DNA from: Candidatus Bathyarchaeia archaeon
GTDB lineage: Archaea > Thermoproteota > Bathyarchaeia > Bathyarchaeales > Bathycorpusculaceae
DNA: 64,000 nt
Assembly: GCA_049512935.1 (NCBI GenBank)
Contig: JBEKWR010000011.1
Location: forward strand, 1 to 64,000
Direction of reading: 5' to 3'
Numbering within the stretch: the first letter of the stretch is position 1; every line of letters begins with the position of its first letter. Below, piece by piece: positions 23,016 through 40,414 of this stretch. Both the position numbers and the translations under genes were made by a program. The notes beneath the pieces were generated by a model that worked only from the letters and a program-made list of their open reading frames with translations, was not told where the DNA came from and ran no database searches.

Positions 23016-23663
23016 ATGAAGCTGGTTTCAATGGATTTGGTTTCTCTAACGCCCCAGGGTCGAATCCTGCTGACTCTGGCTCATGGGCAGCACACGTATG
23101 CAGAGCTGAAGGCTGAGTCTGGGCTCAGCGACAGATGGCTAACCATAAAGCTTCAGGAACTTGTTGCTGACGGCTCCGTTGCGAAAGATGGAAGATGGTA
23201 CAGGGTATGCGAAGGAGCGAAAGTTTCAGCTTACGAGTTAAGTCTTTTCATGCGGGGTCAGGCGCAGCGAGTTGCTGCTGAGCTTGGAAAGCTGCCGCTG
23301 GTGGAGCTCGTTGTGCTTTTCGGGAGTGTAGCTCAACGGAAGGCGGAGCAATACAGCGACATTGACCTTCTAATAGTCGCGGCTGACACTGGTGAAAAAT
23401 CACGCGGGATGATTGTGAATGAATTAAGGCGGCTTGAATCAACCTTTCATTTTGCAATCGAATCCCTGATATTGTCAGAGCAAGATTTCGCCAAAAACTT
23501 ACGGACGGCAGAGGGAGGAATCATTTTTGGTTTAGCTGAGGGCTTCGAGGTTTTGCTGGATCGAAAAGCCAACTTAAGTGATATGCTGCAAAGTCGGGTG
23601 CAGGAGATATTGAGCAGTTTCACTCGCCTAGACGAGGAAGCAATATGGTTGAAAGCAAAGTAA
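23016..23663 (+). CDS. wHTH-fused minimal nucleotidyltransferase (MNT antitoxin)
   Basis: LFGSVAQ...SDIDLL motif with an N-terminal HTH. Confidence 0.85.
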   Translation: MKLVSMDLVSLTPQGRILLTLAHGQHTYAELKAESGLSDRWLTIKLQELVADGSVAKDGRWYRVCEGAKVSAYELSLFMRGQAQRVAAELGKLPLVELVVLFGSVAQRKAEQYSDIDLLIVAADTGEKSRGMIVNELRRLESTFHFAIESLILSEQDFAKNLRTAEGGIIFGLAEGFEVLLDRKANLSDMLQSRVQEILSSFTRLDEEAIWLKAK

Positions 23664-24076
23664 GCGTTCTGATGAGAATTTCGGAAGCTAACCTGGCAAA
23701 GGCTGAGAAGCGCTTCAAGGATTCAGAGTTTGACTCGGCCGTTTTTCATGCGTCGATGGCGGTTGAGACGGCGGCTAACGCGATGATTCTCCGCTTAGGC
23801 GGCAGTGAAGCAAGAGACCATCGGGCGATAAGTGGGTTGGCGGCGGTTTTGAGGCGGGTGAAACCTGAGTTGCTTCAAAAGTTTGAGTTCAGGCAGTTGA
23901 TTGAGAAAGGGTCAGACATTCAACGGGAAGTCGTCTACACTCGTTACCCGATAAGTACGGGCGGCAAATGGGTTACCCCCATGGAGTACTACAGCCGTGA
24001 GAAGGCTAAGGCGGTGCTCGAGAACGCTAAACTTGTTTGCGGCATCATCGAGAAGTACCTTGAAGAAAACAATTAA
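23645..24076 (+). CDS. HEPN-domain protein (MNT-HEPN pair)
   Basis: AVFHASMAVE and YTRYP motifs; overlaps the MNT gene. Confidence 0.85.
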   Translation: MVESKVSVLMRISEANLAKAEKRFKDSEFDSAVFHASMAVETAANAMILRLGGSEARDHRAISGLAAVLRRVKPELLQKFEFRQLIEKGSDIQREVVYTRYPISTGGKWVTPMEYYSREKAKAVLENAKLVCGIIEKYLEENN

Positions 24077-25090: not shown

Positions 25091-25264
25091 TTGAAAAACC
25101 CTGTTTAAACTTATGCATTATCCCTTAAAAACTCTTTGAAAAGCTCTGGGTAGCCAGATTAGGTCTACATTAATTTTTCACGGCACATCGGGCATTTAAG
25201 CGGGAGGCTCTTTTGCAGGTGGTTTTGTTCAACCATGCATGCGAAGCAAACTAGCAGGTAAGCG

Positions 25265-25552
25265 CTAAGAAGGGTTCTGTTTCGTTTCTTTGCTTGTTAG
25301 CAGTTTTATTATGAAGCAAGCATTTACTATCAAAAAGAAGACAAAGACGTAGAATGGGAAGTTAGCAATTGACATTGCAATTGGTACAATAACTTGACCT
25401 GTCGGTGCTGGTGCAATGGCAATGTTGGTAAGACTGTAGCTGTTTACTACTGAGCCGTTGATTTCTGAGAGCATCAATTGGCTGGAAAGATAAAGAAGCA
25501 AACCCATAATGACATTGACACCGACAATGATAGCCGTAAATCTTTTTGTCAT
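25265..25552 (-). CDS. Small two-TM membrane protein (cassette)
   Basis: Two hydrophobic segments; motif copy 24 bp upstream. Confidence 0.7.
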   Translation of the reverse strand: MTKRFTAIIVGVNVIMGLLLYLSSQLMLSEINGSVVNSYSLTNIAIAPAPTGQVIVPIAMSIANFPFYVFVFFLIVNACFIIKLLTSKETKQNPS

Positions 25553-25558
25553 GTTAGT

Positions 25559-25660
25559 CTATCTCTAACGCTTTTCAGATTTAAGACTTATCTACCCTCT
25601 AATAGCGAAATTCCTAACCCTCGAATGTATTCGGTCATAGCCCTAACCGTTTAATGTACT
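25559..25660. repeat. Cassette motif copy 1 plus extended module B
   Basis: ctatctctaacgcttttCAGATTTAAGACTT followed by ...cctaaccctcgaatgtattcggtcatagccctaaccgtttaatgta. Confidence 0.85.
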
Positions 25661-25683
25661 TTGCAGAATAGAAAGAACAGTGA

Positions 25684-26265
25684 TTATGGGGAATTTGTCC
25701 ATACTGGCGTTACAGTCCAGTTGGCGAGGACGCCTTCATGGTAGATATCTAGGTTAACAGTTGCGCATTGTCCAGCTGTTAAATTTCCAAGTTGTGTTGG
25801 ACCAATGTCATATCCTATGTCTGAAACAATCGCAGCGTCAGTTCCATAATTGTAACCGTTAACTAAAGGAACAGTCATGTTTATTGCTATGTGTCCCGAG
25901 GTGGCGTAGGCGATGACTTTTAATCCTGCGTTGTACGCTGTCATGTTTCCCACGTTAACTGCTGAACCTTGAATGAAAAGTCTCCAATAATCAGCACCGT
26001 ATGCATCAATCGAGTTCCCAACACCTATTTGAGCCACACCTAATTGAGCCGTGATTTTTGGGTTGGTTAATAGTGAGATTTGATTGTTCAAATTAGCTAT
26101 CTCTGTATTTTGATTTGCTATTTGATTGTTCAGAGAAGCTATCTTAGAATTTTCTTGTTTGACTACACCGTTATAATAAACTATTGTTCCAGCAAGTGCA
26201 CTTGCAAAGAGTATAGCAATAACTGTGGCGGACACCACTTTAATTTTGCTAACCATACTTGCCAA
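25684..26265 (-). CDS. Membrane-anchored coiled-coil secreted protein (cassette)
   Basis: N-terminal TM, IASLNNQI/IANLNNQI heptads and a beta domain. Confidence 0.75.
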   Translation of the reverse strand: MASMVSKIKVVSATVIAILFASALAGTIVYYNGVVKQENSKIASLNNQIANQNTEIANLNNQISLLTNPKITAQLGVAQIGVGNSIDAYGADYWRLFIQGSAVNVGNMTAYNAGLKVIAYATSGHIAINMTVPLVNGYNYGTDAAIVSDIGYDIGPTQLGNLTAGQCATVNLDIYHEGVLANWTVTPVWTNSP

Positions 26266-26356
26266 TAAAATGTTTTTTCAATAAAAGCGTATTCGTCAAG
26301 ATTCCTTGACTAAAAGCGTAACCCATCAAGTCAAAGTTTCTTGACTAAGAATTAGT

Positions 26357-26593
26357 CTATTTCTGCGCTTTCAGATTTGCGATGTTTGCATCATGCCTTT
26401 TGATTTCTTGGTGCTCATGGTATCCTGCTATGGATGCTATAATCATTCCTGCAAACCAAATAATTATAATAAAGGGGCTGATGACGCCCGGTGGGTTAAT
26501 ATAAAAAATATAGTACAAAGAAGAAAAAAACAAAATTAGCCATACTACACCACAGATTATTAGAATTTTATTCCATTTTGTTATCTTTAACAC
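26357..26593 (-). CDS. Small two-TM protein (cassette)
   Basis: Two TM helices; motif core at 26622. Confidence 0.65.
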   Translation of the reverse strand: MLKITKWNKILIICGVVWLILFFSSLYYIFYINPPGVISPFIIIIWFAGMIIASIAGYHEHQEIKRHDANIANLKAQK

Positions 26594-26606
26594 CTTACCA
26601 GTTTCT

Positions 26607-26635
26607 TTATTCTACGCCATGCAGATTTAAGACTT
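26607..26635. repeat. Cassette motif copy 2
   Basis: ttattctacgccatgCAGATTTAAGACTT. Confidence 0.85.
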
Positions 26636-26666
26636 GCTTTCTTGAATAGTGCAAAAAAACAAATCA

Positions 26667-27068
26667 TTAGGGGCTTGAGATTGGACCACCGTCAAATACT
26701 ACATATATTGCTTGGCGTGCTACATCGTACGAAACTATTGTAACGTATTCAGAAGTAATGAATTCATAATCTAAGTAATTAGTTGTATTACCATTAGGAT
26801 TTAATTGCCAATCGTCCTCTGCAGGTTCAGAAGTCCAGCCAACATATTGAGATTTTGGCTTAAAAACAGCTGTTAACACAAGGTGAGTAGTGCGAGGCGC
26901 TTCTGTGTATGTGAATCCAGCAAAGTAAAACCCAGTGTTACCCACTTTTTCGCCCTTATAAATAAGAGTTAATGATTTTGTTTGGTCAAAGCCCCAAACA
27001 ATAAGTGCCGTTACAGTGACCAATACAACAACAATTTCCGCTATTTCATAATACTTGGATTTTTTCAT
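26667..27068 (-). CDS. Membrane-anchored hypothetical protein (cassette)
   Basis: N-terminal TM; motif core at 27101. Confidence 0.7.
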   Translation of the reverse strand: MKKSKYYEIAEIVVVLVTVTALIVWGFDQTKSLTLIYKGEKVGNTGFYFAGFTYTEAPRTTHLVLTAVFKPKSQYVGWTSEPAEDDWQLNPNGNTTNYLDYEFITSEYVTIVSYDVARQAIYVVFDGGPISSP

Positions 27069-27084
27069 TCTATCTCTGATATTT

Positions 27085-27114
27085 CTATTTCTACGCTATG
27101 CAGATTTAAGATTT
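27085..27114. repeat. Cassette motif copy 3 (contains the stop codon of 27106..27309)
   Basis: ctatttctacgctatgCAGATTTAAGATTT. Confidence 0.85.
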
Positions 27115-27309
27115 TTTTGAGCCAAAAAATACCGTGAGACCGCCAGCAACCAGAAAAGCAATCGCGAGGGTAGCCACTATTAAAGAACCATAAAAGTTAG
27201 AAGACATGTTTCCAGTAGTCTTATACATCAATTCCCTTCCAGCAAAGTATGCAATAATGAGACCGTCAATTAACAACAATATTCCGAGACCGATAAGTGT
27301 TGATTTCAT
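27106..27309 (-). CDS. Small two-TM protein ending FGSKKS (cassette)
   Basis: Two TM helices; TAA stop lies inside the motif. Confidence 0.65.
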   Translation of the reverse strand: MKSTLIGLGILLLIDGLIIAYFAGRELMYKTTGNMSSNFYGSLIVATLAIAFLVAGGLTVFFGSKKS

Positions 27310-27322
27310 TTCGGCTCAATTT

Positions 27323-27440
27323 CCATTTATACGCCATGCAGATTTAAGACTTGTCATCAATGAAGACTTGCTAAAAACTAATGAGCATATCCTTAACCCT
27401 TGAATGCACTCGGTAATAGTACTGATCGTTTGATCTACTA
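27323..27440. repeat. Cassette motif copy 4 plus module B
   Basis: ccatttatacgccatgCAGATTTAAGACTT...ccttaacccttgaatgcactcggtaatagtactgatcgtttgatcta. Confidence 0.8.
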
Positions 27441-27451
27441 CGGAGACATGG

Positions 27452-27784
27452 TTATTCTAATTTGTGTAACTTAGCCCTTGCTCTTAACAACATTACTGTA
27501 CATAACAACAAAGAAATTATTGCAAATACACCAATAAGAGTCGTTGCGTACAAAAAGATTGCTTTGAGTGCGAGGTTATCTGTAGAAAAGTATTCTTCAT
27601 AATTTACAGTGAATAAAGCTGCAAAAAAAGCAAGACTGCCAAAGAGAAATGTTCCCCATAACTGAATATCAGCTTGAAGTTTAGCAAGGTCAATTTGTAA
27701 TTTTCTCTCGATATCTATTTCATCATCTTTTTCTTCATGCTCTATAGAAAACAACCCAAGAATACTGATTTTTATCTTGGACAC
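27452..27784 (-). CDS. Two-TM membrane protein (cassette)
   Basis: Two TM helices; motif core at 27816. Confidence 0.65.
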   Translation of the reverse strand: MSKIKISILGLFSIEHEEKDDEIDIERKLQIDLAKLQADIQLWGTFLFGSLAFFAALFTVNYEEYFSTDNLALKAIFLYATTLIGVFAIISLLLCTVMLLRARAKLHKLE

Positions 27785-27799
27785 TTGAATCCCTAAGTT

Positions 27800-27829
27800 C
27801 TATTTCTACGCTTCACTGATTTAAGACTT
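27800..27829. repeat. Cassette motif copy 5 (contains the stop codon of 27821..28033)
   Basis: ctatttctacgcttcaCTGATTTAAGACTT. Confidence 0.85.
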
Positions 27830-28033
27830 TTTAACTCCAAAAATAACCATGAGACCGCCGATTGCGACTATGACAGCGGCTATGATAATATCCCAAAGAT
27901 ACGAGCCTATCGCTGAAAGAATGTTAACTGTGGTCACGGTGTGTTCCATGTGCACACCTGAGAAATAGCCAAAAACTAACCCTATCGCAATCAGCACTAT
28001 TCCAATGCCAGCAACTATTGAACCGTGCCCCAT
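27821..28033 (-). CDS. Small two-TM protein ending FGVKKS (cassette)
   Basis: Two TM helices; TAA stop lies inside the motif. Confidence 0.65.
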   Translation of the reverse strand: MGHGSIVAGIGIVLIAIGLVFGYFSGVHMEHTVTTVNILSAIGSYLWDIIIAAVIVAIGGLMVIFGVKKS

Positions 28034-28038
28034 GACTG

Positions 28039-28110
28039 CTATTTCTACGCTATTCAGATTTAAAACTTATCTACTCTATAATTGTGAAATCCCTAACCCT
28101 TGAATGTACC
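28039..28110. repeat. Cassette motif copy 6 plus partial module B
   Basis: ctatttctacgctattCAGATTTAAAACTTatctactctataattgtgaaatccctaacccttgaatgtac. Confidence 0.85.
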
Positions 28111-28126
28111 CTTAAAATCTATACTA

Positions 28127-28336
28127 TCAGAGATACAATATAACCCAAAGCACAAATCCAATAACGGCGAAAACTAACATACCACCAAAAAACTTTGGAA
28201 GAAAACTGTATCTTGAAATGTCTTTGTTCTTATCGAGTAAAATCTTGAATACTTCTCCAAATAAATCATAAAGTACTTGTGCAAACACAGCAAGCAAAAC
28301 ACCAAATAGTAGCCAGAAGAACTCCGAATTTATCAT
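28127..28336 (-). CDS. Small two-TM protein (cassette)
   Basis: Two TM helices; motif core at 28358. Confidence 0.65.
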   Translation of the reverse strand: MINSEFFWLLFGVLLAVFAQVLYDLFGEVFKILLDKNKDISRYSFLPKFFGGMLVFAVIGFVLWVILYL

Positions 28337-28342
28337 AATAAT

Positions 28343-28371
28343 CTATCTTTGAGCATGCAGATTTAAGACTT
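28343..28371. repeat. Cassette motif copy 7
   Basis: ctatctttgagcatgCAGATTTAAGACTT. Confidence 0.8.
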
Positions 28372-28427
28372 ATCGTGCTTTCAAAACGTCAAAAAATCTT
28401 GGGTATACGGTTAACTTTAATCTGGGT

Positions 28428-28643
28428 TTACCTACGCAAAATGCGAAGAATAATTAAGCCTGCAACGAAAAGCACGATGCCACCGAACATTATGAATACC
28501 ATCATTAAGTATATTGCTCCTCCAGCCCACTGATGAAAACGTAATGGTATATGCAACAATGGAATAGCCCACGTGAATAGTGTGTAGAACCACCAAACGA
28601 TGTATGCCAATGGCAATAAAACCCACACGTGTTTCTTGTTCAT
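28428..28643 (-). CDS. Small two-TM protein (cassette)
   Basis: Likely start MNKKHVW at 28643, 33 bp from the motif core. Confidence 0.65.
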   Translation of the reverse strand: MNKKHVWVLLPLAYIVWWFYTLFTWAIPLLHIPLRFHQWAGGAIYLMMVFIMFGGIVLFVAGLIILRILRR

Positions 28644-28660
28644 TTCTATCTCTGATACTT

Positions 28661-28689
28661 CTATTCCACGCTGTGCAGATTTAAGATTT
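28661..28689. repeat. Cassette motif copy 8
   Basis: ctattccacgctgtgCAGATTTAAGATTT; ~50 bp nearly identical to the copy 3 region. Confidence 0.85.
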
Positions 28690-28768
28690 TTGACCATTAT
28701 GGCAGTTGCTTAAAAACAATTGCAAAAAATCAATTTATAGCTGCCGAAATAAAAAACGGGACTATATT

Positions 28769-29362
28769 CTATTCACTCTTTAAGAAAATTAGAAGTTCTT
28801 TCAAGCCTTTTTCTTCAGGTTTTCGTAATTCACCATCTTTCTTAAGCTGTTCGATAGTTTTTTTGAGATAAAGTTCTTTGGCTCTCTTTTTGCGAAAAAC
28901 TAATGCGTATACTTCTGCCTCTGGGTAAATTATTTTGTCAGGATATGATAACCTCTCAGAAAGAATAATTGTAGCGAAACGCAAGTTTTTATTTTTTTGT
29001 TTGAATTTGTCAAATGTGGTTTTTATATCCTCTGATTTCTTCTTACCAACAACGGCACTGTTACTGATTTTCAGAACAGCATCCAATTCTTTAACTGAAT
29101 ACTCTTTTCTGTTTTGGTCAACATCAGTCTTAATTAGATACAAAAGGTTCATTCCCGTTTTTACATCTTTTATTTTTACTCTAACATTCTGAGGCAATCT
29201 AATATCTTTAGGAAGACAGTTATGAATGGCAATTTGGGTTGCTTTCCCAGATTTTAGCATTGGAGAACCAGTTTGATTAGGATATTCCTTTGTGACTTCG
29301 ATAAGCATCTTATATTCTGTATCTTCATCAGATAATGATTTCAATTCTTCAAATTTAGTCAT
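28769..29362 (-). CDS. Lys-rich cytoplasmic hypothetical protein, possibly restriction-endonuclease-like fold (cassette)
   Basis: 197 aa; beta/alpha pattern LDAVLKI...RFATIILSER; motif core at 29395. Confidence 0.55.
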   Translation of the reverse strand: MTKFEELKSLSDEDTEYKMLIEVTKEYPNQTGSPMLKSGKATQIAIHNCLPKDIRLPQNVRVKIKDVKTGMNLLYLIKTDVDQNRKEYSVKELDAVLKISNSAVVGKKKSEDIKTTFDKFKQKNKNLRFATIILSERLSYPDKIIYPEAEVYALVFRKKRAKELYLKKTIEQLKKDGELRKPEEKGLKELLIFLKSE

Positions 29363-29378
29363 TTTTTATCCTATAGCC

Positions 29379-29478
29379 CTATTTCTACACTAACCAGATT
29401 TAAAACTTCTCTACTCTGTAATAGCGAAGTCCCTGACCCTTGAATGTACTCGATAATAGCGTAATCGTTTAATGTAAA
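29379..29478. repeat. Cassette motif copy 9 plus module B
   Basis: ctatttctacactaacCAGATTTAAAACTT...ccctgacccttgaatgtactcgataatagcgtaatcgtttaatgta. Confidence 0.85.
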
Positions 29479-29501
29479 CTTCACGTATGCGTAGGAAAAG
29501 G

Positions 29502-30143
29502 TCACTGATTTAAGTTAGCGGTTTTTCGAAGCTTAACTATCACAGCAGCGGAGAACACGGAAAGAAGCAAGGGCACAATCACCGACCAAGACAGTTCTGA
29601 AACTGCTTGGGTTGAGGCTGGTGTTGATGTAGGTGTTGCAGTAGTAGGTGTTGGCGTTGCGGTTGGAGAATTACTAGTCGTTGTCGAAGCTTGACCGTTC
29701 CAGATTATATTGTAGGTCTGCAACGTTGCGCTGTCAAGCATGGCGTAATCCATACTGCTTATTGAACTGCCAGAGGGAATTTGAAAGACTAATGCACCAC
29801 TGAATGAACCGCCATTAAGTACATTCACTGTACTCCAATTATTGAGGGCAAAAGTTTCAATGTCATAATAGTAAGCAACATTATTAGCTGTAGCTGAAAA
29901 ATATACTGGGTTAGTATCGAAACTGTCATAGCCATTGTTAGTAATAGTTATGTTAACAATCGCAAAAACGTAGCCTGATTGCGGACTGACATAAGCCAAG
30001 CCATTCCAAATTTGGTTCACCGTGAATGAACTGAAATTAATCGCTATGTTATCATCAGCTTTAACGGATTTTATGTTTGTCATCCAAACGACTGAAGCGA
30101 GAAATAACATTAAAAGAATGGAGATTAGGATTTTTTTGTTCAT
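29502..30143 (-). CDS. DUF4352-like Ig-fold surface protein with PT linker and C-terminal anchor
   Basis: GYVFAIVNITITNNG, GALVFQIP, TPTATPTP linker and VSELS + TM + basic tail. Confidence 0.75.
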   Translation of the reverse strand: MNKKILISILLMLFLASVVWMTNIKSVKADDNIAINFSSFTVNQIWNGLAYVSPQSGYVFAIVNITITNNGYDSFDTNPVYFSATANNVAYYYDIETFALNNWSTVNVLNGGSFSGALVFQIPSGSSISSMDYAMLDSATLQTYNIIWNGQASTTTSNSPTATPTPTTATPTSTPASTQAVSELSWSVIVPLLLSVFSAAVIVKLRKTANLNQ

Positions 30144-30270
30144 TTTCTGCCCCTTGCTGGCTCTATCTGCTGCTTTAGCATATAAGCTTTAACAGGCTTG
30201 CCTTTTTGCCGTCGCTAGGTTGCCAACACAAAAAGCGAAAATAAAAAAGAAAAGAAAAGGGTTTGTTGGT

Positions 30271-30555
30271 TTAGAGGCGTTTGATGTAGCGGTTGACTTC
30301 CCAGTCGGTTACTTGCGTGCGGTACAGGTTCCATTCGCGGCGTTTTTCCCGCAAAAAGTTGTCAAACGCGGTTTCGCCCAAGGTCTCGCGCATCAGGTCG
30401 CTGGTTTCCAACTCGTCTAAGGCTTCCTCAAGCGAGTCTGGCAGGGAAACGATGTTTCGTTCTTTGCGTTCTTCGTAGGTCATCTGGTAAATGTTCAGCT
30501 CCACCGGGTCGCCTGGGTCAATGCGGTTCCTGATGCCGTCCAAACCCGCCGCCAA
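30271..30555 (-). pseudogene. glnA: Duplicated 3' fragment of glnA (last 94 codons)
   Basis: Aligns without gaps to 33900-34184, with scattered, mostly third-position differences. Confidence 0.92.
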
Positions 30556-31238
30556 AGCCTGCTTGCTTACCCATAGATAGCAATGGACCAGAAACCAAAA
30601 CTAACCCGCATAGATTATGTAAAAACCAAAAAGTTAACCCGTACACATAAGGGCAAAAAAGCAGGTTACGGTTAATAGATGGTACACGTGCCTCTTTCAT
30701 TATCCTTAGAGAACATTAATTCTTTGTCTGCTAAAAACGCTCTTAACTCTGTAATGTTGCCGTTTGTCCTTATTGTAAGAATAAAAGCGCCACGTTCGTT
30801 TTTTCAATTACATTGACAAACTCTTTTTGTGAATATGATGACTGATTGTGCAAGCGTTAAAAAATAGCATCAAAAACTTCTCTTCCAATGAGGCGCACTC
30901 TTTTGTCAAAATTGCAGGGTTTGCATTTTCCACAATGGAGCATTTAGCAGAATATGATCTCCCTAACAATCGCAATTCAATGTCTTTGTAATCTTCGAAG
31001 TGCATTGGCTCCATGCAAATCGCGTTCATGGTAATTCGTTCTCTCACACTGCATCGTAGGCTACTTCTTGCGGGTGGTTTCGATTGACAAAAGAATTATT
31101 TGCAGAAGATGTTTAAAAAATAGGTATAAAAGTGCAGACTTTCTATTGTGAGTCTGATTCCAGAAAATACATAAGCTTTTTTACTAATTTAACGTAATAG
31201 TCGAACAATCTAGATACTATCACAATAGCGATGATAAA

Positions 31239-32084
31239 ATGGAAAAACCCGCTGTCGATACGATTATTTGCGGAGATTGTGAGCAAGTTCTCAGAGAAAA
31301 CTATCCCAAAAACTTCTTCAACTTGATTGTCACATCGCCACCATATGCAGACAGAAGAAAGAAAATATATGGTGGCATCCATCCTGACAAATATGTAGAT
31401 TGGTTCTTGCCAAAAAGCAAGGAATTTCTGAGAGTCTTAAAAGATGATGGAACATTCATTCTTAATCTTAAAGAGAGAGTTGCAGATGGAGAAAGACACA
31501 CTTTCAGATTAGAGCTAATTTTAGAGATGCGAAAGCAAGGTTGGCTGTGGACTGAAGAGTTCATATGGCATAAGAAAAACTGCTACCCTGGTAAATGGCC
31601 CAATCGTTTCAGAGATGCATGGGAACCAATATTGCAGTTCAACAAGAAGAAAAAGTTCAAAATGTTCCAAGAAGAAGTTATGATTCCAGTAGGCGACTGG
31701 TCTAAAAGAAGGCTGAGCAAACTAAGCGAGACTGACTACGTTAGAGACGAATCTAAAACTAGCAGCGGTTTTGGAAAGAAAATTGTCAATTGGGTTGGAA
31801 GAGACAAAGTTTATCCCACTAATGTTCTGCACATGGCAACTGAATGTGCATATAGAGGACACAGCGCTACATTTCCAATTGAGTTGCCTTCATGGTTCAT
31901 TAAGTTGTTCACTGAGAAGCATGATGTTGTGTTAGACCCTTTCATGGGTTCTGGAACAACAGCTCTAGCGTCAAAACAATTGAGCAGACACTATGTTGGA
32001 ATAGACACCTCGGAAGAATATTGTGAGGTTGCTAAAGAGAGAGCTACAGTTGTGAGTCAATCATCATTGGATGTCTTACTATGA
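31239..32084 (+). CDS. Site-specific DNA methyltransferase (beta class, N4-C/N6-A)
   Basis: TSPPY motif IV precedes DPFMGSGT motif I. Confidence 0.93.
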   Translation: MEKPAVDTIICGDCEQVLRENYPKNFFNLIVTSPPYADRRKKIYGGIHPDKYVDWFLPKSKEFLRVLKDDGTFILNLKERVADGERHTFRLELILEMRKQGWLWTEEFIWHKKNCYPGKWPNRFRDAWEPILQFNKKKKFKMFQEEVMIPVGDWSKRRLSKLSETDYVRDESKTSSGFGKKIVNWVGRDKVYPTNVLHMATECAYRGHSATFPIELPSWFIKLFTEKHDVVLDPFMGSGTTALASKQLSRHYVGIDTSEEYCEVAKERATVVSQSSLDVLL

Positions 32085-32842
32085 ACCAAATAGACATGAA
32101 GAAGGTTGTAGAGTTTGTTGATAGCAATATCGTTAACTTTCACAATGCAAAACTAGAATCTATTAAAGTGCTTCAACTTGATGAATTGTTAAAAAGAAAA
32201 AATCCGTACATGTTCAAAGCAAAAAACATTGCCACTGTTGAAGATTACGTGAGAAATCTTCTTGACGCACATCTGTATTCGCAAGAAGAAACAATGTTTG
32301 GCACTTTCTTAGAGAAACTTGCTATCTTCGTATGCAGCGAAGCCTTTGGCGGTCAGAAAACTCCTGCTGAAGGAATAGACTTAGATTTTTGTCGAGATGA
32401 CAAACGATACTTAGTGGCAATTAAGTCTGGCCCTCATTGGGGCAACAGTACACAAATAAAGAAGATGCTAGACTACTTCGCTCAAGCTAAAAGAATACTG
32501 AATTTAGATAACGTCTGTTGCCTCAATGGATGTTGCTATGGAAGATGCAACAAAGAGAACAAGGGCAAGTACATTAAGAAATGCGGGCAGTCTTTTTGGG
32601 AATTCATCTCTGGAAGTAGCGAATTCTACAAAGAAATAATTGAACCACTTGGACATAAAGCAAAAGAGAGAAACGAAGAATTCAACCAAGAATACGCAAA
32701 AGTCATAAATAAATTTGGGTTAGAATTTAGCGCTCTCTACTTGAAGGCAGACCACAGCATTGATTGGGAAAAAATTGTAGAATTCAACAGTGCAAGAAAA
32801 AAGCAGAAGAAATTTATTGCTGCAACACAAATAACTCTTTAA
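32081..32842 (+). CDS. Type II restriction endonuclease (PmeII-like)
   Basis: RKNPYMFKAK, GIDLDF and AIKSGPHWGNS; ATGA overlap with the MTase. Confidence 0.8.
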   Translation: MNQIDMKKVVEFVDSNIVNFHNAKLESIKVLQLDELLKRKNPYMFKAKNIATVEDYVRNLLDAHLYSQEETMFGTFLEKLAIFVCSEAFGGQKTPAEGIDLDFCRDDKRYLVAIKSGPHWGNSTQIKKMLDYFAQAKRILNLDNVCCLNGCCYGRCNKENKGKYIKKCGQSFWEFISGSSEFYKEIIEPLGHKAKERNEEFNQEYAKVINKFGLEFSALYLKADHSIDWEKIVEFNSARKKQKKFIAATQITL

Positions 32843-32918
32843 AATAACTTCTACTGATGCATTCTATTTCAATTGCAATTGATGAACTTTTTGCACTCAT
32901 ATCTAACATTGGCTTAAG

Positions 32919-33689
32919 CTATGCATTTACTGTGAGAGTAACTTCATGAGTTGTTACTTCGTTGCCGTCTGCTAAAACAGTGATAGTGATAACGTACTTT
33001 CCTGGCAGCACATTGTGCGACGCTAGATTGAAGCTGTAGTCTGTACTTTGCCCTAATGGTCCTAAACCAGTGATTGAACTAAAATTAGGTGTTATAGTCA
33101 GTCCTGAAGTACCTGATGGCGCTGTTGCTGTTGCAGAGAAATCCGAATAAGCGCCATGACCGTTGCTCTTAATTTCAAAGTGCAGAGCTGTATTGTCATT
33201 TTGTCCAATTTGACTTTTTTCTGGAACAACTGGATACCCAAAGGGTTCAGTCCAATGAACATTTGTAATTTCTATTGATGGAAGCACATAGCACGTAGGA
33301 CTTATATTAGCTGGGGTTGTGGTTCCATTGTAGGTATAGCTAATTGATATTGGGTAATAGCCATTAGCAATATCTGCCACTTGAATAAGGCAGGAAACTT
33401 GTTCCGTGGCGTTAGCTGCGACGTTAATTGAGTTTGAAGTAACTGTGCCAAATGCGTTTGACTCCAGAGTCACAAAAACTCCTTTTGCCTCTCCACCAGT
33501 ATTCTGAACACTAACAGCAACTGAATAGTTCAACGTGGCTTCTGCCAAAAATGAGTCTAAACTGACAGATAGTACTGGGGGTTGTGATGGCTCTTTTGGT
33601 GGCAAACTTAAGTAATACAAAGTACCAGCCAAACCAGCCGCTAAGATTAAACATACAATAGCAATTGCTGCAATGTACTTCGGTTTCAT
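32919..33689 (-). CDS. Membrane-anchored Ig-like surface protein
   Basis: N-terminal TM and two beta-sandwich-like segments. Confidence 0.7.
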   Translation of the reverse strand: MKPKYIAAIAIVCLILAAGLAGTLYYLSLPPKEPSQPPVLSVSLDSFLAEATLNYSVAVSVQNTGGEAKGVFVTLESNAFGTVTSNSINVAANATEQVSCLIQVADIANGYYPISISYTYNGTTTPANISPTCYVLPSIEITNVHWTEPFGYPVVPEKSQIGQNDNTALHFEIKSNGHGAYSDFSATATAPSGTSGLTITPNFSSITGLGPLGQSTDYSFNLASHNVLPGKYVITITVLADGNEVTTHEVTLTVNA

Positions 33690-33899
33690 TATCAGTGCCT
33701 CAAATTACGCACTCTATCGTTTTCAGTATTTAGTTATTGTTAACTTATATGTGTCAAAATCAAACAGTTAATTGAAATTGATCCCATACAGACTTAATGA
33801 GTACGCAAATGTATCAAACTGAACAGAGTTGTAGTATGCAAAAAAGTGAATTGAGACCCTGATTAAGCAAAAGAAAGGGGAAGGGAGGCTTTTCTTGTT

Positions 33900-35267
33900 T
33901 TAGAGTCGTTTGATGTAACGGTTGACTTCCCAGTCAGTTACTTGCGTGCGGTACAGGTCCCATTCCCTGCGTTTTTCCCGCAAAAAGTTGTCAAACGCGG
34001 TTTCGCCCAACGTTTCACGCATCAGGTCGCTGGTTTCCAGCTCGTCTAAGGCTTCCTGTAACGACTCGGGCAGGGATACGATGTTGCGTTCTTTGCGTTC
34101 TTCGTAGGTCATCTGGTAAACGTTCAGCTCCACTGGGTCGCCTGGGTCAATGCGGTTGCGTATGCCGTCTAAACCCGTCGCCAACAGCACCGCAAACTGC
34201 AGATACGGGTTTCCTGCGCCGTCTGGGTTGCGGATTTCGCATCGGGCAGCGTTCTTGCGTCCGCCGAAGTTGGGTACGCGGATGAGTGGAGAGCGGTTCT
34301 TGTGCGCCCAAGCAAGATACACTGGCGCCTCGTAGCCTGGAACCAGCCGTTTGAAACTGTTCGGCCAAGAGTCAAGGATTGCGCACATTTTGCGTCCGTG
34401 AGCCAGTTGCCCGCCGATGAAGTTCCTTGCGAGGTCGGAGAGGTAACCGCTCTTTTCGTCGTTCGCGTAAAACAGGTTCTGGGTTGCATCCTTGTTCCAG
34501 AGGCTCTGGTGAGTGTGCATTCCTGACCCGTTTATGCCGCTGAAAGGCTTAGGCATGTAAGTGGTGACGTAGCCGTTTCTGGCGGCGACCACTTTCCCGC
34601 ACATCTTCATTGTAATTGTTCGGTCAGCCGTCTTGAGCGCTTCGTCGTACTTGAAGTCGATTTCGTTCTGTCCCAAAGCGACCTCGTGATGGGATATTTC
34701 TATTTCGATGCCGAAGGCTTCAGCCGTGTCAGCTATTTCCCGCCTTAAATCATCTGTTAAGTCGCCTGGGTGAAAATCAAAGTAGCCCGCCATGTCAATC
34801 GGCGTCGGCAACCCGCCCTTTTCCTCGCTTTCCTTAACGATGAAAAACTCCAGTTCAGGAGCGCAGAAAAACGTGTAACCAGCCTTAGTCGCCTTGTCGA
34901 TGGCTCGCTCCAAAACAAACCTTGGGTCGCCTTCGAACCGCTTGTTCTGCGGAGTGTAAATGTCGCAGAGGAGCCGCGCGGAAGACTTCTCTTTTGGACG
35001 CCACGGCAAAACCGCGAAAGTTGTCGGGTCAGGATAAAGCACCATGTCCGACTCTTCAATGGGCCTGTAACCCGTGATAGACGAGCCGTCGAAGGACTGC
35101 CCATTCTCAAAAATTGATTCAATGTTTTTCGAGTTTACAGCCAAATTCTTAAGCATGCCGTTTATGTCGGTGAATTGTAGCCTGATGAACTTGATTTCTT
35201 GCTCTTGGATTTGCTGGACAACTTTTGTTACGCTTTCTTTCCACGCCGCGTCTTTAAAATTTTTCAT
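33900..35267 (-). CDS. glnA: Glutamine synthetase type I (alpha-like)
   Basis: FDGSS, HHEVALGQNEI, NGSGMH and RLVPGYEAP motifs. Confidence 0.95.
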   Translation of the reverse strand: MKNFKDAAWKESVTKVVQQIQEQEIKFIRLQFTDINGMLKNLAVNSKNIESIFENGQSFDGSSITGYRPIEESDMVLYPDPTTFAVLPWRPKEKSSARLLCDIYTPQNKRFEGDPRFVLERAIDKATKAGYTFFCAPELEFFIVKESEEKGGLPTPIDMAGYFDFHPGDLTDDLRREIADTAEAFGIEIEISHHEVALGQNEIDFKYDEALKTADRTITMKMCGKVVAARNGYVTTYMPKPFSGINGSGMHTHQSLWNKDATQNLFYANDEKSGYLSDLARNFIGGQLAHGRKMCAILDSWPNSFKRLVPGYEAPVYLAWAHKNRSPLIRVPNFGGRKNAARCEIRNPDGAGNPYLQFAVLLATGLDGIRNRIDPGDPVELNVYQMTYEERKERNIVSLPESLQEALDELETSDLMRETLGETAFDNFLREKRREWDLYRTQVTDWEVNRYIKRL

Positions 35268-38512: not shown

Positions 38513-38971
38513 CTACGTTTCCCGCCGCAGAAAATCCCCAATATCAAGCACGTTCTTAACAGCCACCTTCTCTGCAGAACCGCCTAAGTCGCCAGTTATC
38601 CTCCCGAAGCCGAGGCATTCACCAAACTCATTCAGCACCAAGACAGCGTCGCCCTTCCGTTTGGACCCCATCGCCTTAGCTACGCCTGACCCGAAAACGT
38701 CTCTGCCGCAGATGAAAAGCCACGCAGCCTTCCCATTCAAGACCACCTTGTTTGCCGCCGCGTCAACAAGCATGTTAAGCAAGTTGAAGCTTGGAAAGAA
38801 AATTCCCTTCTTGACCTTGCCCAGGTACATGCCCGCACAGTAAAAGTTCGCAGGCATCCGCTTAAGCCGAGGATTAAGGAGGTAAAACCGCTGGTTTCTT
38901 TCAACAATGAATTCCGCGTTAAACTCTACCTTAGCGCCCACAGCGGAAGCGAAGGATTCGTACGGCTTCAA
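38513..38971 (-). CDS. Nip7/PUA-domain ribosome biogenesis protein
   Basis: AWLFICGRDVF and LDIGDFLRRE motifs. Confidence 0.8.
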   Translation of the reverse strand: MKPYESFASAVGAKVEFNAEFIVERNQRFYLLNPRLKRMPANFYCAGMYLGKVKKGIFFPSFNLLNMLVDAAANKVVLNGKAAWLFICGRDVFGSGVAKAMGSKRKGDAVLVLNEFGECLGFGRITGDLGGSAEKVAVKNVLDIGDFLRRET

Positions 38972-39855
38972 TGTTCAGCCTCCTTCTTGAGTTTGCAGAC
39001 AAAAAAGCCCTGCGTTTCACCAGGCCAAATTCTTCTGGAAAGGGCAACTTGAGCGTCAAGTTTTTTGCCAAACACGTCAGTCAACCCGTTTGCGCCTAAG
39101 CAGTCAACCTTCTGAATCTGAAGCCCCAGGTTTTTGATTGCCCAATCCATGTTTAACTCGTCCTCTTCGGGCTCAAGGGAACAGGTGGAATAGACTATTT
39201 CGCCGCTGTCCGTTAAGCACGCTGCTGCTTCCTTCAAGATTGCTCTCTGCACGTTCGCGTTCCGTTCAACGTCATCAATGGTTCTTCGGTAAAACCAATC
39301 CTTGTCACCTGCAAAGTTACCCGAGCAGGGAACGTCAAGCAGTATGCGGTCGAACTTTCGGTTAAGCATCCCAGCTTGACGCGCATCAACATTGTAAACG
39401 ATTGTGTTGCTGACATGGCAGCGTTCCAGCTGGTTAGCCATCACGTTAAGCCTCTGCTTATTTGTGTCTAACGCGGTTATGACGCCGCTGTTTCCCATGA
39501 CGTCAGCAAGCTGAACCGTTTTGCCCCCGGGCGCAGCGCAGGCATCAAGCACGGTTTTGCCGCTCAGGGCAGAAAAAAGCGTGGCGGGGATTTGCGCGGC
39601 TGCTTCCTGGATAGAGTACAGCCCGAGCAGGTATTCTGCTGTAGCGCCGACGGAAACTTTGGTTTTGCCGACCCAGTACCCCGCAGGCAAAAAAGGGATT
39701 TTCTCAAGTTCAACGCCTAAGCCATATAGCCGTTCTGGAAGGTTTTTTCCTTTACCGCTAGCTTGGTTTATTCGGATTGACTGCTTCAGGTTGACTTCCC
39801 TAAAGGTCCAGCCGAGCCGTGCGTAGCGGTCTAGGAAAAACTGTTTAGCTGACAT
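38968..39855 (-). CDS. NOL1/NOP2/Sun RNA m5C methyltransferase
   Basis: DACAAPGGKT, LDVPCSG and YSTCS motifs; likely start MSAKQ at 39855. Confidence 0.92.
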   Translation of the reverse strand: MSAKQFFLDRYARLGWTFREVNLKQSIRINQASGKGKNLPERLYGLGVELEKIPFLPAGYWVGKTKVSVGATAEYLLGLYSIQEAAAQIPATLFSALSGKTVLDACAAPGGKTVQLADVMGNSGVITALDTNKQRLNVMANQLERCHVSNTIVYNVDARQAGMLNRKFDRILLDVPCSGNFAGDKDWFYRRTIDDVERNANVQRAILKEAAACLTDSGEIVYSTCSLEPEEDELNMDWAIKNLGLQIQKVDCLGANGLTDVFGKKLDAQVALSRRIWPGETQGFFVCKLKKEAEH

Positions 39856-40122
39856 CACCTCTACATTGCAAGGAGCAAATAAAAACTTTGCAGCAGCACC
39901 AACGCCTTCATCCCTATAGTTTCCAAAGCAATGATAACAGAAATAGCCAATAACTAACCTGTAAGCTATAACGCAATACATTGCAAGCTTATGAGAAAGA
40001 AAATTCCGCCAAGATTCAAAAAGCTAAGAAGATATGAAAACATTTGGAAATATCGTATTAGGAGCAGAAGAGAGTTTTGAAAAACTTTTGCTATCTTAGT
40101 CTTCTTCTAAGTGCCCTCTTAA

Positions 40123-40278: not shown

Positions 40279-40388
40279 ATCAAAAACCTAACCTGCAGGT
40301 ATAAGTTGATTAACTATAATAAGCAATGTGAATGTAACCCTACAGCAACAACAAGCATAGCGCTTGTCACTTTCACTTCACTTCTCAC

Positions 40389-40414
40389 CTCTATGTTATG
40401 CAGATTTAAGACTT
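40389..40414. repeat. Solitary copy of the cassette motif
   Basis: ctctatgttatgCAGATTTAAGACTT, exact 14-bp core at 40401-40414. Confidence 0.7.

Follow-up and report, generated by a model that had tools for sequence, protein, structure and literature searches.

A repeated 30-nt sequence of probable promoter character heads small-protein genes in a bathyarchaeal subclade and may mark points of module exchange

An array of small, co-oriented genes, most of them preceded by the same short sequence, raises the question of whether that sequence is the site of a cassette-moving recombinase, a promoter, or a promoter whose copies also serve as places of rearrangement. We consider this question for a bathyarchaeal stretch of 64,000 nucleotides (the window; contig JBEKWR010000011.1, positions 1 to 64,000), its source genome (G000) and related genomes.

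The array and its repeated element

Eleven minus-strand ORFs lie head to tail within 25265-30143, as the preliminary description had it, and the AT-richness and mostly membrane or secreted character that it ascribed to them are likewise borne out (33-42% G+C versus 47.7% genome-wide; a span predicted for 10 of the 11 with a 19-residue hydropathy window). Its nine motif copies were all located, matching the core positions it gave. With its consensus and at most three mismatches, six array copies are recovered versus none in 100 shuffles, and the starts in the array lie 5-16 nt past the motif end, in agreement with the claim of a motif upstream of start codons. The features are, in reading direction:

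40385-40414, minus strand: outlying motif copy, right half degenerate, 403 nt upstream of ORF 38968-39981
30245-30555, minus strand: upstream limit of the array, a duplicated glnA 3' end, 89% identical to 33869-34184
25265-30143, minus strand: the array itself, AT-rich, 11 small ORFs head to tail
29502-30143, minus strand: first ORF, 213 aa; DUF4352 domain, signal-like N-terminus, C-terminal span; motif absent, own TATA-like sequence only
29379-29408, minus strand: motif copy 1; ATG of ORF 28769-29362 16 nt after
28769-29362, minus strand: 197-aa ORF, soluble basic protein
28660-28689, minus strand: motif copy 2; ATG at 28643 16 nt after, for the 71-aa reading
28428-28643, minus strand: 71-aa ORF with ATG at 28643, two predicted spans
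28342-28371, minus strand: motif copy 3, right half divergent; ATG of ORF 28127-28336 5 nt after
28127-28336, minus strand: 69-aa ORF, two predicted spans; a relative stands behind a motif at another locus (L086)
28039-28068, minus strand: motif copy 4, leaderless geometry; ATG of ORF 27821-28033 5 nt after
27821-28033, minus strand: 70-aa ORF, two predicted spans; paralogue of 27106-27309; stop inside the next motif
27800-27829, minus strand: motif copy 5; contains the TAA stop of ORF 27821-28033; GTG of ORF 27452-27784 15 nt after
27452-27784, minus strand: 110-aa ORF, GTG start, two predicted C-terminal spans
27323-27352, minus strand: motif copy 6; ATG of ORF 27106-27309 13 nt after
27106-27309, minus strand: 67-aa ORF, two predicted spans; paralogue of 27821-28033
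27085-27114, minus strand: motif copy 7, closest to consensus; contains the TAA stop of ORF 27106-27309; ATG of ORF 26667-27068 16 nt after
26667-27068, minus strand: 133-aa ORF, predicted N-terminal span
26606-26635, minus strand: motif copy 8; GTG of ORF 26357-26593 12 nt after
26357-26593, minus strand: 78-aa ORF, GTG start, two predicted spans
about 26357-26385, minus strand: decayed tenth copy, right half kept, TATA part lost; read as the terminal codons and stop of ORF 26357-26593; lies upstream of ORF 25684-26265
25684-26265, minus strand: 193-aa ORF, predicted N-terminal span and a repeat-rich stretch
25590-25680, minus strand: upstream extension of motif copy 9, two direct 15-nt boxes
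25560-25589, minus strand: motif copy 9, right half with a one-base insertion; ATG of ORF 25265-25552 7 nt after
25265-25552, minus strand: 95-aa ORF, two predicted spans

Twenty motif copies occur in the source genome, and apart from the one at 40385-40414 none lies near a housekeeping-type gene. Shorter versions of the upstream extension are found at 28069-28109, 29409-29476 and 27353-27419. A restriction-modification module is inserted beside the array.

The ORFs had been called mutually unrelated, which does not quite hold for 27106-27309 and 27821-28033, paralogues with 38% identity over 66 aa (E 8e-11); the former has a third paralogue on another contig of the same genome (C15) and relatives in other species. 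ORF 25684-26265, which has no intact motif here, has a paralogue on contig C24 and a relative with a perfect motif in another species (G019, locus L019). The 95-aa ORF belongs to the most widespread motif-headed family, whose nine members have different neighbours in every species seen. For the 197-aa protein, the ESM Atlas model offers a resemblance to clusters of PD-(D/E)XK restriction-endonuclease-like proteins (TM 0.5-0.69), to be taken as a lead only.

Anatomy, distribution and promoter character of the motif

Read on the minus strand, the 30-mer is AAGTCTTAAATCTG-CATA-GCGTAGAAATAG. Over 229 sites the conserved block spans positions -3 to 30; because the motif itself was used in collecting the sites, the values for positions 1-14 and 19-26 are inflated. 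The proposed layout of two arms around a variable central 4 bp did not survive this larger sample: position 16 is A in 94% and position 18 is A in 90% of the sites, variation within the supposed spacer is limited to positions 15 and 17, and positions 27-30 vary just as much as these two. In the source genome, 17 of the 20 left-half matches (at most one mismatch) also carry the right half.

The motif is not private to a local array, since the same 30-mer heads 20 genes of the source genome and occurs at no fewer than 229 sites in the clade, singly as well as in arrays. Of 80 other species in the genus, 42 have it, in a pattern that follows relatedness: it occurs in all 12 genomes whose glnA DNA is 80% or more identical to that of the source genome, in none of the 14 with at most 74% identity, and in none of the 16 genomes of other families of the order. 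Exact matches amount to 103 stretches among 185,579 species genomes (among the 80 matches listed, all are Bathyarchaeota or Bathyarchaeia MAGs), and the exact pattern was found in none of 2.9 million IMG/VR contigs. Judged by these sequences, the motif is confined to one clade, a subclade within a single Bathyarchaeia genus of peat and wetland, and is inherited by descent. Contigs of several MAGs end at motif clusters.

A BRE/TATA promoter within the site had been claimed, and both the resemblance of the left half to tRNA-gene boxes and the start-codon register agree with it. The tRNA genes of the source genome have AAAG(C/T)TTAAAT-like boxes 34-38 nt before the tRNA, and the promoter of one tRNA-Ser gene is almost the same as the motif's left half. 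Of the 157 ORFs of at least 40 aa that follow a motif, 54 have their start 5-8 nt downstream of it, so that 27-30 nt separate the TATA centre from the ATG, and another 71 begin 11-25 nt after it. Archaeal promoters obey a rule of distance between TATA box and start, and on sequence grounds the 5-8 nt spacing is what a leaderless promoter in archaea would show. The 30-mer is thus very probably an archaeal promoter. As to a binding factor, no DNA-binding gene recurs beside the motif sites. TFB genes number two in G019, with its 31 sites, and also two in the motif-free genomes G008 and G065, so TFB copy number does not track the motif.

The 157 motif-headed ORFs fall into 106 clusters, so that at least 106 families are headed by the motif. 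With 81 of them singletons, the set is unlike known regulons, an observation that speaks against the promoter-operator reading preferred below. A span is predicted in 81 of the 157. A Pfam scan of 150 motif-headed ORFs returned only 17 family rows with one member each, among them the nuclease-like NYN, HNH, PLD and EVE, and no housekeeping family. The median dN/dS of 0.19-0.58 in nine families indicates that these ORFs are real genes. Each has its own site, as the idea of one site per gene implied; 159 of the 229 sites have a neighbour within 1.5 kb, 76 are single sites before isolated genes, and 100 of 106 adjacent motif pairs are co-oriented, head to tail. The sites are dispersed in islets of one to nine genes.

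Homology borders and the competing explanations

The view of motif-headed genes as modules is upheld by comparison between species, in which order and content shift and homology borders pile up at the motif. Among 675 untruncated homology borders between loci, 36, at 29 distinct sites, fall no more than 3 nt from a motif's outer edge on the 5' side, and 26, at 22 distinct sites, are equally close to the outer edge on the 3' side, versus means of 0.65 and 0.59 and maxima of 6 and 8 in 300 trials of random motif placement. This null is naive: selection for gene integrity restricts breakpoints to the short spacers, and motif copies will always align pairwise. The enrichment is not exclusive, because 62 borders continue 4-100 nt upstream past the 5' edge and 25 fall short of a motif by 0-70 nt. 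In G019, a module of 57/58 aa is duplicated at 88% identity between unrelated flanks, with homology from the first base of the upstream motif to a few bases past the downstream one. The paralogue on contig C15 retains only the left half of a motif at its 3' end, and at three loci the ORFs of one family terminate within the motif that follows. PGK and HAD are 27 nt apart at one locus (L121) versus 2.25 kb, with two motif genes, in the source genome. Upstream of GDPD, three species carry wholly different islets between flanks that are alike in nearly all aligned columns, and at one of these loci (L017) the shared flank terminates at the motif edge. Whether the promoter copies are real recombination points is, on such sequence comparisons, an evenly balanced matter.

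The reading that we prefer, at a probability of roughly 0.55, is that of a clade-specific promoter and operator on self-expressing modules, the copies of which also act as passive recombination points. The 30-mer would be a complete archaeal core promoter, its left half the ordinary BRE/TATA of the organism and its right half a clade-specific box that fills the space between TATA and transcription start. This right half would most likely be the operator of one putative DNA-binding factor, and the operator position suggests a repressor. Transcription would start 4-8 nt after the motif, which would leave a third of the genes leaderless and give the rest leaders of 11-25 nt. Promoter, short ORF and T-rich tail may then form a self-expressing module, and the subclade would keep a large, fluid pool of such modules, encoding mostly small membrane proteins or proteins of no known family and a few nuclease-like ones, placed head to tail in AT-rich islets with fast turnover. 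The identical promoter repeats would be the places of module exchange, duplication and loss, most simply by homologous or unequal recombination or by replication slippage between promoter copies, a process for which a dedicated enzyme would not be needed.

It is possible, if rather unlikely, that the motif is a plain regulon promoter and operator without a role in rearrangement, where genes move or vanish as whole units under selection and the pile-up of borders is a by-product of motif copies aligning mutually. All of the promoter evidence applies here equally, the border enrichment is partial, and the PGK|HAD islet has its outer borders off the motifs, with 213 nt and 459 nt of other DNA outside. 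Cassette identity is also close to that of core genes (74-85% between species for the 95-aa gene, 80-84% for glnA), and the array recurs colinear and 100% identical over 27086-30369 in contigs of another study (run X3). However, the borders exactly at the 3' edge, where the upstream gene and the whole motif are shared and the downstream gene differs, are not predicted at all by selection for gene integrity; the G019 duplicate is bounded by two motifs, and a co-orientation of 94% is unexpected for independent promoters.

An integron-like system had been proposed, in which a dedicated recombinase encoded elsewhere moves one-gene cassettes at the motif. The co-oriented arrays with one gene per site, the module borders at the motif and the orthologous hot spots with completely different content would all suit it, as would the ORF family that terminates within the following motif, whose left half would then seem to be part of the preceding cassette. 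This mechanism is nevertheless quite improbable and the proposal is not sustained. The absence of attC ends, already noted in the preliminary description, is confirmed (no RYYYAAC...GTTRRRY pairs; shuffles mean 1.2), no single-strand hairpin forms at the motif (MFE -0.3 to -3.1 kcal/mol, eight of nine z-scores positive), dyad symmetry is weak (14 of 28 positions self-complementary), and the supposed spacer is largely conserved. Nor is a recombinase linked to the array: for its 20 sites the source genome has just one PF00589 match, located on a different contig, and none to PF00239; in G047, where the motif matches 15 times, PF00589 matches are weak only; and no recombinase recurs among the neighbours of 121 motif segments. 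An integrase gene does lie 1.2 kb from two sites at one locus (L059), in a small integrase-bearing element. The fixed start-codon register is a promoter property, and the motif also heads isolated genes.

That same small element, the restriction-modification module next to the array, the AT-rich and co-oriented DNA with its mostly family-less products, the NYN, HNH, PLD and EVE matches and the PD-(D/E)XK-like lead would fit a promoter of an integrated virus or plasmid family with an element-encoded regulator, the arrays being decayed remnants. We regard this as very improbable, given the absence from the IMG/VR contigs, the lack of capsid, replication and integrase genes in or beside the arrays of the source genome, the dispersal of sites in small islets and a distribution that tracks host relatedness. 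Most improbable is a MITE-like non-autonomous transposon with an outward promoter that lands before genes, for which the longer upstream unit (about 47-95 nt, at 24 of the 229 sites and conserved across species) and the contig ends at motif clusters could be cited, but which is at odds with the lack of terminal inverted repeats, hairpins and conserved structure, the fixed register, the sharp end of conservation at position 30 and the 30-mer standing alone at most sites.

Comparison with known systems

Conserved sequences that precede many membrane or surface protein genes and are places of exchange are known from the Mycoplasma vsa/vpma loci, with 5' sites and a linked recombinase, and from the 70-bp repeats upstream of trypanosome VSG genes. 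There the members of a family are paralogues, and antigenic switching makes use of a single active promoter, whereas the motif genes are unrelated and have their own promoters, with no inversions and no linked recombinase found.

Closer in geometry are archaeal promoters under repressors such as MDR1, Phr and TrmB-family factors, in which the operator lies between TATA and start; they share with the motif a conserved box just downstream of TATA that overlaps the start region in constant register. Known regulons of this kind have few to tens of conserved members, in contrast to 106 clusters in 157 genes, where 81 clusters have a single member and hardly any gene has a known family, and the BRE/TATA of the motif is as invariant as its box, the factor being only putative.

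Ghaly et al. 2022 (PMC9668308) define archaeal integrons from MAGs by IntI together with attC sites that fold as single strands in the way bacterial ones do. The likeness lies in tandem, co-oriented, short and mostly unrelated ORFs with one conserved site per gene and content that varies among relatives. The motif differs in having no attC core, hairpin or linked IntI, in its place on the 5' side of every gene, in constant promoter register, in giving each gene its own promoter where integrons share a common Pc, and in heading isolated genes as well.

The putative mobile promoters of Matus-Garcia, Nijveen and van Passel (2012; commentary PMC3575422) are defined as stretches of 50 nt or more, with at least 80% identity, between -150 and -50; according to the commentary they come mostly in pairs, none common to both domains. 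Closely similar sequences before non-homologous genes, within and between genomes, are common to both cases. The bathyarchaeal motif is distinguished from them as a 30-nt probable core promoter that occupies -36 to -6 relative to the start codon. A genome carries tens of copies and the clade no fewer than 229, set in head-to-tail arrays in which synteny breaks at the motif.

The repeat and the array it precedes

The minus strand of 25265-30143 carries 11 ORFs of 67-213 aa (our own crude ORF calls) in DNA of 33-42% G+C, compared with 47.7% genome-wide. A simple hydropathy window predicts at least one membrane span in 10 of the 11. Nine ORFs each have the 30-nt motif (positions 1-30, 5' to 3') 5' of them, exactly where the preliminary description had placed it; its consensus is matched by six copies with at most three mismatches, and by none in shuffled sequence. 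The proposed lack of relationship among the ORFs holds for all but one pair. The features of the array needed below are:

25684-26265, minus strand: ORF without an intact motif
26295-26313 and 26330-26348: small palindrome of GTCAAG-N-CTTGAC type, present twice as a direct repeat upstream of ORF 25684-26265
26357-26593, minus strand: ORF whose last codons and stop are formed by a tenth, decayed motif copy (about 26357-26385)
27106-27309 and 27821-28033, minus strand: the one related pair (38% identity, E 8e-11)
28769-29362, minus strand: ORF of the sole soluble array protein (197 aa, basic)

Above the cut-off, Pfam recognised only the first array ORF (DUF4352). PADLOC returned nothing firm for 10 proteins, with two weak matches (E 0.001-0.005), and the two Rfam matches were both sub-threshold. 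Sequence searches with the 197-aa protein remained without result; its ESM Atlas model resembles PD-(D/E)XK endonucleases (DUF6602, Bpu10I and DpnII type, TM 0.5-0.69), which we regard as a lead only. Several loose contig ends of other sequencing runs fall at 26328-26367, suggesting that the palindrome region also recurs as a repeat in the community.

With a weight matrix made of the nine array copies, 229 distinct sites were gathered from the genome of the window and related loci. Across these sites, conservation begins abruptly at position -3 and extends to position 30; it is inflated at positions 1-14 and 19-26 because the sites were gathered with the motif itself; positions 15-18 were left free in exact-pattern searches. 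The arm-spacer-arm layout suggested earlier is not borne out. Of the four supposedly variable spacer positions, two are conserved (A at position 16 in 94% and at position 18 in 90% of the 229 sites), so that within the spacer just 15 and 17 vary, and positions 27-30 are equally variable.

The left half of the motif, (AT)AAGTCTTAAAT, resembles the AAAG(C/T)TTAAAT-like boxes found 34-38 nt upstream of the tRNA genes of this genome, and one tRNA-Ser promoter is nearly identical to it. We interpret the left half, therefore, as the ordinary BRE/TATA of the organism. Beyond it, a box spanning positions 15-30 is conserved in fixed register at the 229 sites. The right half, CATAGCGTAGAAATAG, is peculiar to motif sites and present at 17 of the 20 left-half matches in the genome.

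Among 157 ORFs of at least 40 aa starting within 75 nt of a motif, the start codon follows the motif by 5-8 nt in 54 and by 11-25 nt in 71. As the TATA centre is at position 8-9, the ATG of the former class lies 27-30 nt downstream of it. Archaeal TATA boxes are centred about 26-27 nt before the transcription start, and the spacing thus matches the textbook distance for a leaderless mRNA. In ordinary long genes of the genome, a purine-rich Shine-Dalgarno signal lies at -12 to -9, and the distance to a TATA box is not fixed. The earlier suggestion that the site carries a BRE/TATA promoter is supported by the tRNA-like BRE/TATA of every copy and by the leaderless distance; we infer from these sequence features that the motif is an active promoter. 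The right half would bind a factor, judged by its position a repressor.

Taken with 10 nt on either side, the motif does not fold as a single strand (MFE -0.3 to -3.1 kcal/mol, z +0.4 to +1.1 in eight of nine copies), and its dyad symmetry is weak, with 14 of 28 positions self-complementary in the best register. The consensus holds stops in all three forward frames (TAA, TAA and TAG at -1 to 2, 7 to 9 and 17 to 19), so that any ORF entering the motif gets closed. ORFs ending inside a motif are 27106-27309, 27821-28033 (e.g., in the copy 27800-27829), a relative at locus L020 and a 57-aa module of the related genome G019. Directly upstream, 24 of the 229 sites have a conserved extension of about 47-95 nt (in the window at 25589-25680, 27353-27419, 28069-28109 and 29409-29476). 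It contains two direct 15-nt boxes about 29 nt apart and is conserved across species; no RNA structure was found in it (5 invariant pairs, no covariation). The extension may be an upstream activator site, and at least two other upstream variants occur at motif sites.

Distribution of the motif and the genes behind it

Further copies were found both in this genome and in other Bathyarchaeia. The genome of the window has 20 sites above 20 bits (ten on the array contig C11, four on C6, two each on C1 and C15, one each on C24 and C28), all in locally AT-rich DNA, and of 80 other species of the genus, 42 have the motif with up to two mismatches. None of 16 genomes from other families of the order has it. 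Motif counts follow relatedness: in the 69 of the 80 genomes covered by glnA DNA identity, all 12 with at least 80% identity have the motif (1-31 matches), compared with 24 of 43 with 75-79% and none of 14 with 74% or less. When one genome per species (185,579 species) was scanned for the exact pattern, 103 stretches matched, and all 80 among the matches listed are Bathyarchaeota/Bathyarchaeia MAGs, by title mostly from bog, palsa and SPRUCE sets. The exact pattern has no match in IMG/VR, and a viral origin was rejected on this ground. Distant homologues of a 95-aa protein in the motif-free genomes G065 and G008 (31-35% aa identity) have different promoters or upstream sequences. Contig C36 of the window's genome (10,575 nt) has 37.4% G+C throughout, compared with 47.7% for the genome, and no listed motif site above 12 bits.

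The genes behind the sites of this genome encode small membrane proteins, zinc-ribbon proteins, two secreted proteins (259 and 828 aa), a NUDIX protein, a weakly HEPN-like protein and a 283-aa protein without confident family. The sole copy near a housekeeping-type gene (40385-40414) is degenerate and lies 403 nt upstream of that gene. Across genomes, the 157 motif-headed ORFs (median 114 aa) form 106 sequence clusters, of which 81 have a single member, and a span is predicted by hydropathy window in 81 of the 157. Pfam (E <=1e-5) yielded just 17 family rows for 150 of these ORFs, with one member each (NYN, GNAT in four rows, RDD, HNH, PLD-like, EVE, ArsR-type HTH, PKD, NosD, zinc ribbon and three DUFs). 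No housekeeping family is among them. Median pairwise dN/dS is 0.19-0.58 in nine multi-member families, which argues that these are real, fast-evolving genes.

A second islet (an AT-rich cluster of modules, each consisting of promoter motif, short ORF and T-rich tail) lies at the start of contig C15 (locus L003, 1-3900). Encoded in it are a zinc-ribbon and secreted protein of 423 aa, two motif-headed genes (for a NUDIX protein and a membrane protein of 129 aa), a third member of the 67-aa paralogue family and a membrane protein of 309 aa, followed by endonuclease III and an XPD-like helicase. In the window, 23016-24076 contains an overlapping pair of a nucleotidyltransferase gene (HxlR-like HTH, below cut-off) and a HEPN gene, likely of toxin-antitoxin type at the edge of the variable region.

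Proposed exchange of modules between islets

The sites are clustered and mostly oriented alike: 159 of the 229 lie within 1.5 kb of a further site, and orientation agrees in 100 of 106 adjacent pairs. The numbers of runs with 1, 2, 3, 4, 5 and 9 sites are 76, 32, 14, 7, 2 and 1; the longest seen is the array of the window, although most loci spanned just 8 kb.

An all-vs-all comparison of 121 non-duplicate segments produced 175 HSPs of at least 120 nt and 80-99% identity. Among the 675 homology borders not cut by a segment end, 36 (29 distinct sites) lie within 3 nt of the 5' outer edge of the motif and 26 (22 distinct sites) within 3 nt of its 3' outer edge, compared with means of 0.65 and 0.59 and maxima of 6 and 8 in 300 trials of random motif placement, a naive null given that breakpoints must spare ORFs and that motif copies all align with each other. 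The 3'-edge borders are the informative class because here the upstream gene and the whole motif are common, with downstream genes that differ. Borders are not confined to the edges: 62 continue past the 5' edge on its upstream side for 4-100 nt, and 25 end 0-70 nt before a motif.

The clearest single case is a module of 57/58 aa on two contigs of G019 (88% identity, flanks unrelated), whose homology runs from base 1 of the upstream motif to a few bases past the downstream motif; a third copy in another genome has identical limits. In the two-span family of 27106-27309, the stop codon lies inside the next motif in three loci, with a different gene next each time, and the C15 paralogue, the third in this genome, has the left half of the motif at its 3' end, followed by unrelated sequence. 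Pieces of 170-260 nt with 88-96% identity are pairwise common to islets on contigs C18, C21 and C44 of G019 (L019/L049, L015/L079 and L014/L046), a mosaic that suggests repeated exchange among islets of one genome.

Comparisons between genomes are at species level. Locus L121 and contig C1 of the window's genome are syntenic from GAPDH (96% aa identity) and PGK (86%) through HAD, Mrp and HypA; the PGK-HAD gap measures 27 nt in the former and 2.25 kb, with two motif-headed genes, in the latter, and the outer limits of this islet are not at motifs. The GDPD-LarE interval holds three motif sites and four ORFs in G019, two sites and two other ORFs in L028, and other content in L103. Its common flank, identical in nearly all aligned columns of the three species, stops in G019 right at the 5' edge of a motif. 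Between species, gene content thus varies, in line with the preliminary description: orthologous islets differ, and borders pile up at motif edges. The surroundings of glnA (33900-35267) are likewise not conserved: in the nearest relatives examined, hisS rather than an array lies downstream of it (ORFs read by eye).

A separate event is visible at glnA itself. Its last 316 nt are duplicated with 89% identity (30245-30555 and 33869-34184), and the insert between the copies (30556-33868) contains an N6_N4 DNA methylase (31239-32084), an EcoO109I-type restriction endonuclease (32081-32842) and a 256-aa secreted protein (32919-33689); an integrase is absent. The arrangement looks like that of a restriction-modification module which brought along a 3' fragment of glnA and recombined through it into this place.

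Logan contigs of 20 runs contain parts of the array, all of them labelled peat or wetland metagenomes and none of them an RNA run. Run X3, from another study, contains 27086-30369 and other pieces at 100% identity in unchanged order, which indicates that the array of this strain is stable across samples. Logan contigs of the four runs X3-X6 end at motifs, and many loose ends run into other motif-headed genes. Contig joints connect 26346 to 29525 with 6 other letters (X3, X4, X6) and 27111 back to 25266 (X5, side 50); their sides are short (20-50 nt, at 90% likeness) and probably stem from other populations, and we count them as evidence neither for nor against excision. JGI metagenome contigs scanned with the 213-aa protein for strain variants returned the source contig only.

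The borders may be the product of recombination between promoter copies. A possible, still tentative reading, to which we assign a probability of about 0.3, is that the 30-nt promoter is both the switch of one putative common regulator and a homology handle for a clade-wide pool of one-gene modules, an archaeal analogue of integrons that is either recombinase-free or served by a not-yet-seen recombinase. By means of this handle, modules would undergo duplication, deletion and exchange, both among islets and among related cells, and a newly acquired module of a relative would immediately come under expression and regulation.

In the Bathyarchaeia, which are abundant but uncultivated, nothing is to our knowledge known experimentally of gene control. 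An element almost invariant at hundreds of sites would offer a ready promoter/operator for in vitro transcription, factor pull-down and genetic tools. It also groups more than 100 small membrane or family-less genes in one presumed control unit, whose common function (candidates are envelope remodelling, defence and stress) is testable with metatranscriptomes.

Comparison with known systems

The proposal of an integron-like cassette system survives in its organisation, one site per gene and swappable modules, and not in its mechanism, as every defining feature tested fails. Integrons have an IntI-type tyrosine recombinase beside the array, whereas the PF00589 search found none beside the motif array. 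A linked tyrosine recombinase is missing in this genome, its single PF00589 match being on C2 and none on C11; PF00239 has no match in the genome, and no recombinase recurs among the neighbours of motif loci. Five motif-rich genomes have 5-18 PF00589 matches each, one of which is close to motif sites, and in G047 (15 motif matches) they are weak only. The close one is a 444-aa tyrosine integrase at locus L059 (2146-3480, genome G085, contig C34), followed by small ORFs and, 1.2 kb away, motif sites at 4327 and 5321, all between the genes for HMG-CoA reductase and an acetyl-CoA synthetase subunit. This is a small integrated element using the same putative promoter. The attC sites of integrons are imperfect palindromes folding as single strands; the nine sites here neither fold nor have the cores, whose absence had been noted before (RYYYAAC...GTTRRRY: 0 pairs in 25201-30200, mean 1.2 in shuffles). 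Finally, integron cassettes are mostly promoterless and depend on a common Pc, whereas each motif copy has a BRE/TATA of putative promoter function.

Regulons of transcription factors have members conserved between species, unlike the 106 clusters among 157 ORFs and the differing orthologous islets found here. For a cognate factor, no recurrent DNA-binding neighbour was seen, and one ArsR-type ORF is among the 150 motif-headed ORFs searched. A dedicated TFB paralogue is unlikely, because G019 (31 sites) has two TFB genes, as do the motif-free G008 and G065.

Xer/dif sites consist of two inverted binding arms around a variable spacer of 6-8 nt, whereas the motif is self-complementary at 14 of 28 positions and conserved at spacer positions 16 and 18 (94% and 90%). 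MITEs have terminal inverted repeats and a target-site duplication. No inverted repeats flank the motif, which does not fold, and its upstream extension lacks conserved structure.

A literature search by motif letters matched only an unrelated plant primer, and one by words (Bathyarchaeia, promoter, leaderless, genomic island) had nothing relevant among the matches listed. The closest published ideas, as far as the main texts go, are putative mobile promoters (PMC3575422) and archaeal integrons (PMC9668308). Neither describes the element, supplements aside; data S1 of the latter may list Bathyarchaeia integrons. Putative mobile promoters are upstream sequences of unrelated genes that agree in at least 80% of positions across 50 nt or more (PMC3575422). 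The motif likewise precedes unrelated genes, but its core is just 30 nt, and 24 of the 229 sites have the longer block of about 47-95 nt. If promoter copies are indeed the recombination points, a cassette-like accessory genome would arise by ordinary recombination at a common promoter, a different and possibly new route to the cassette turnover that integrons achieve with a dedicated enzyme.
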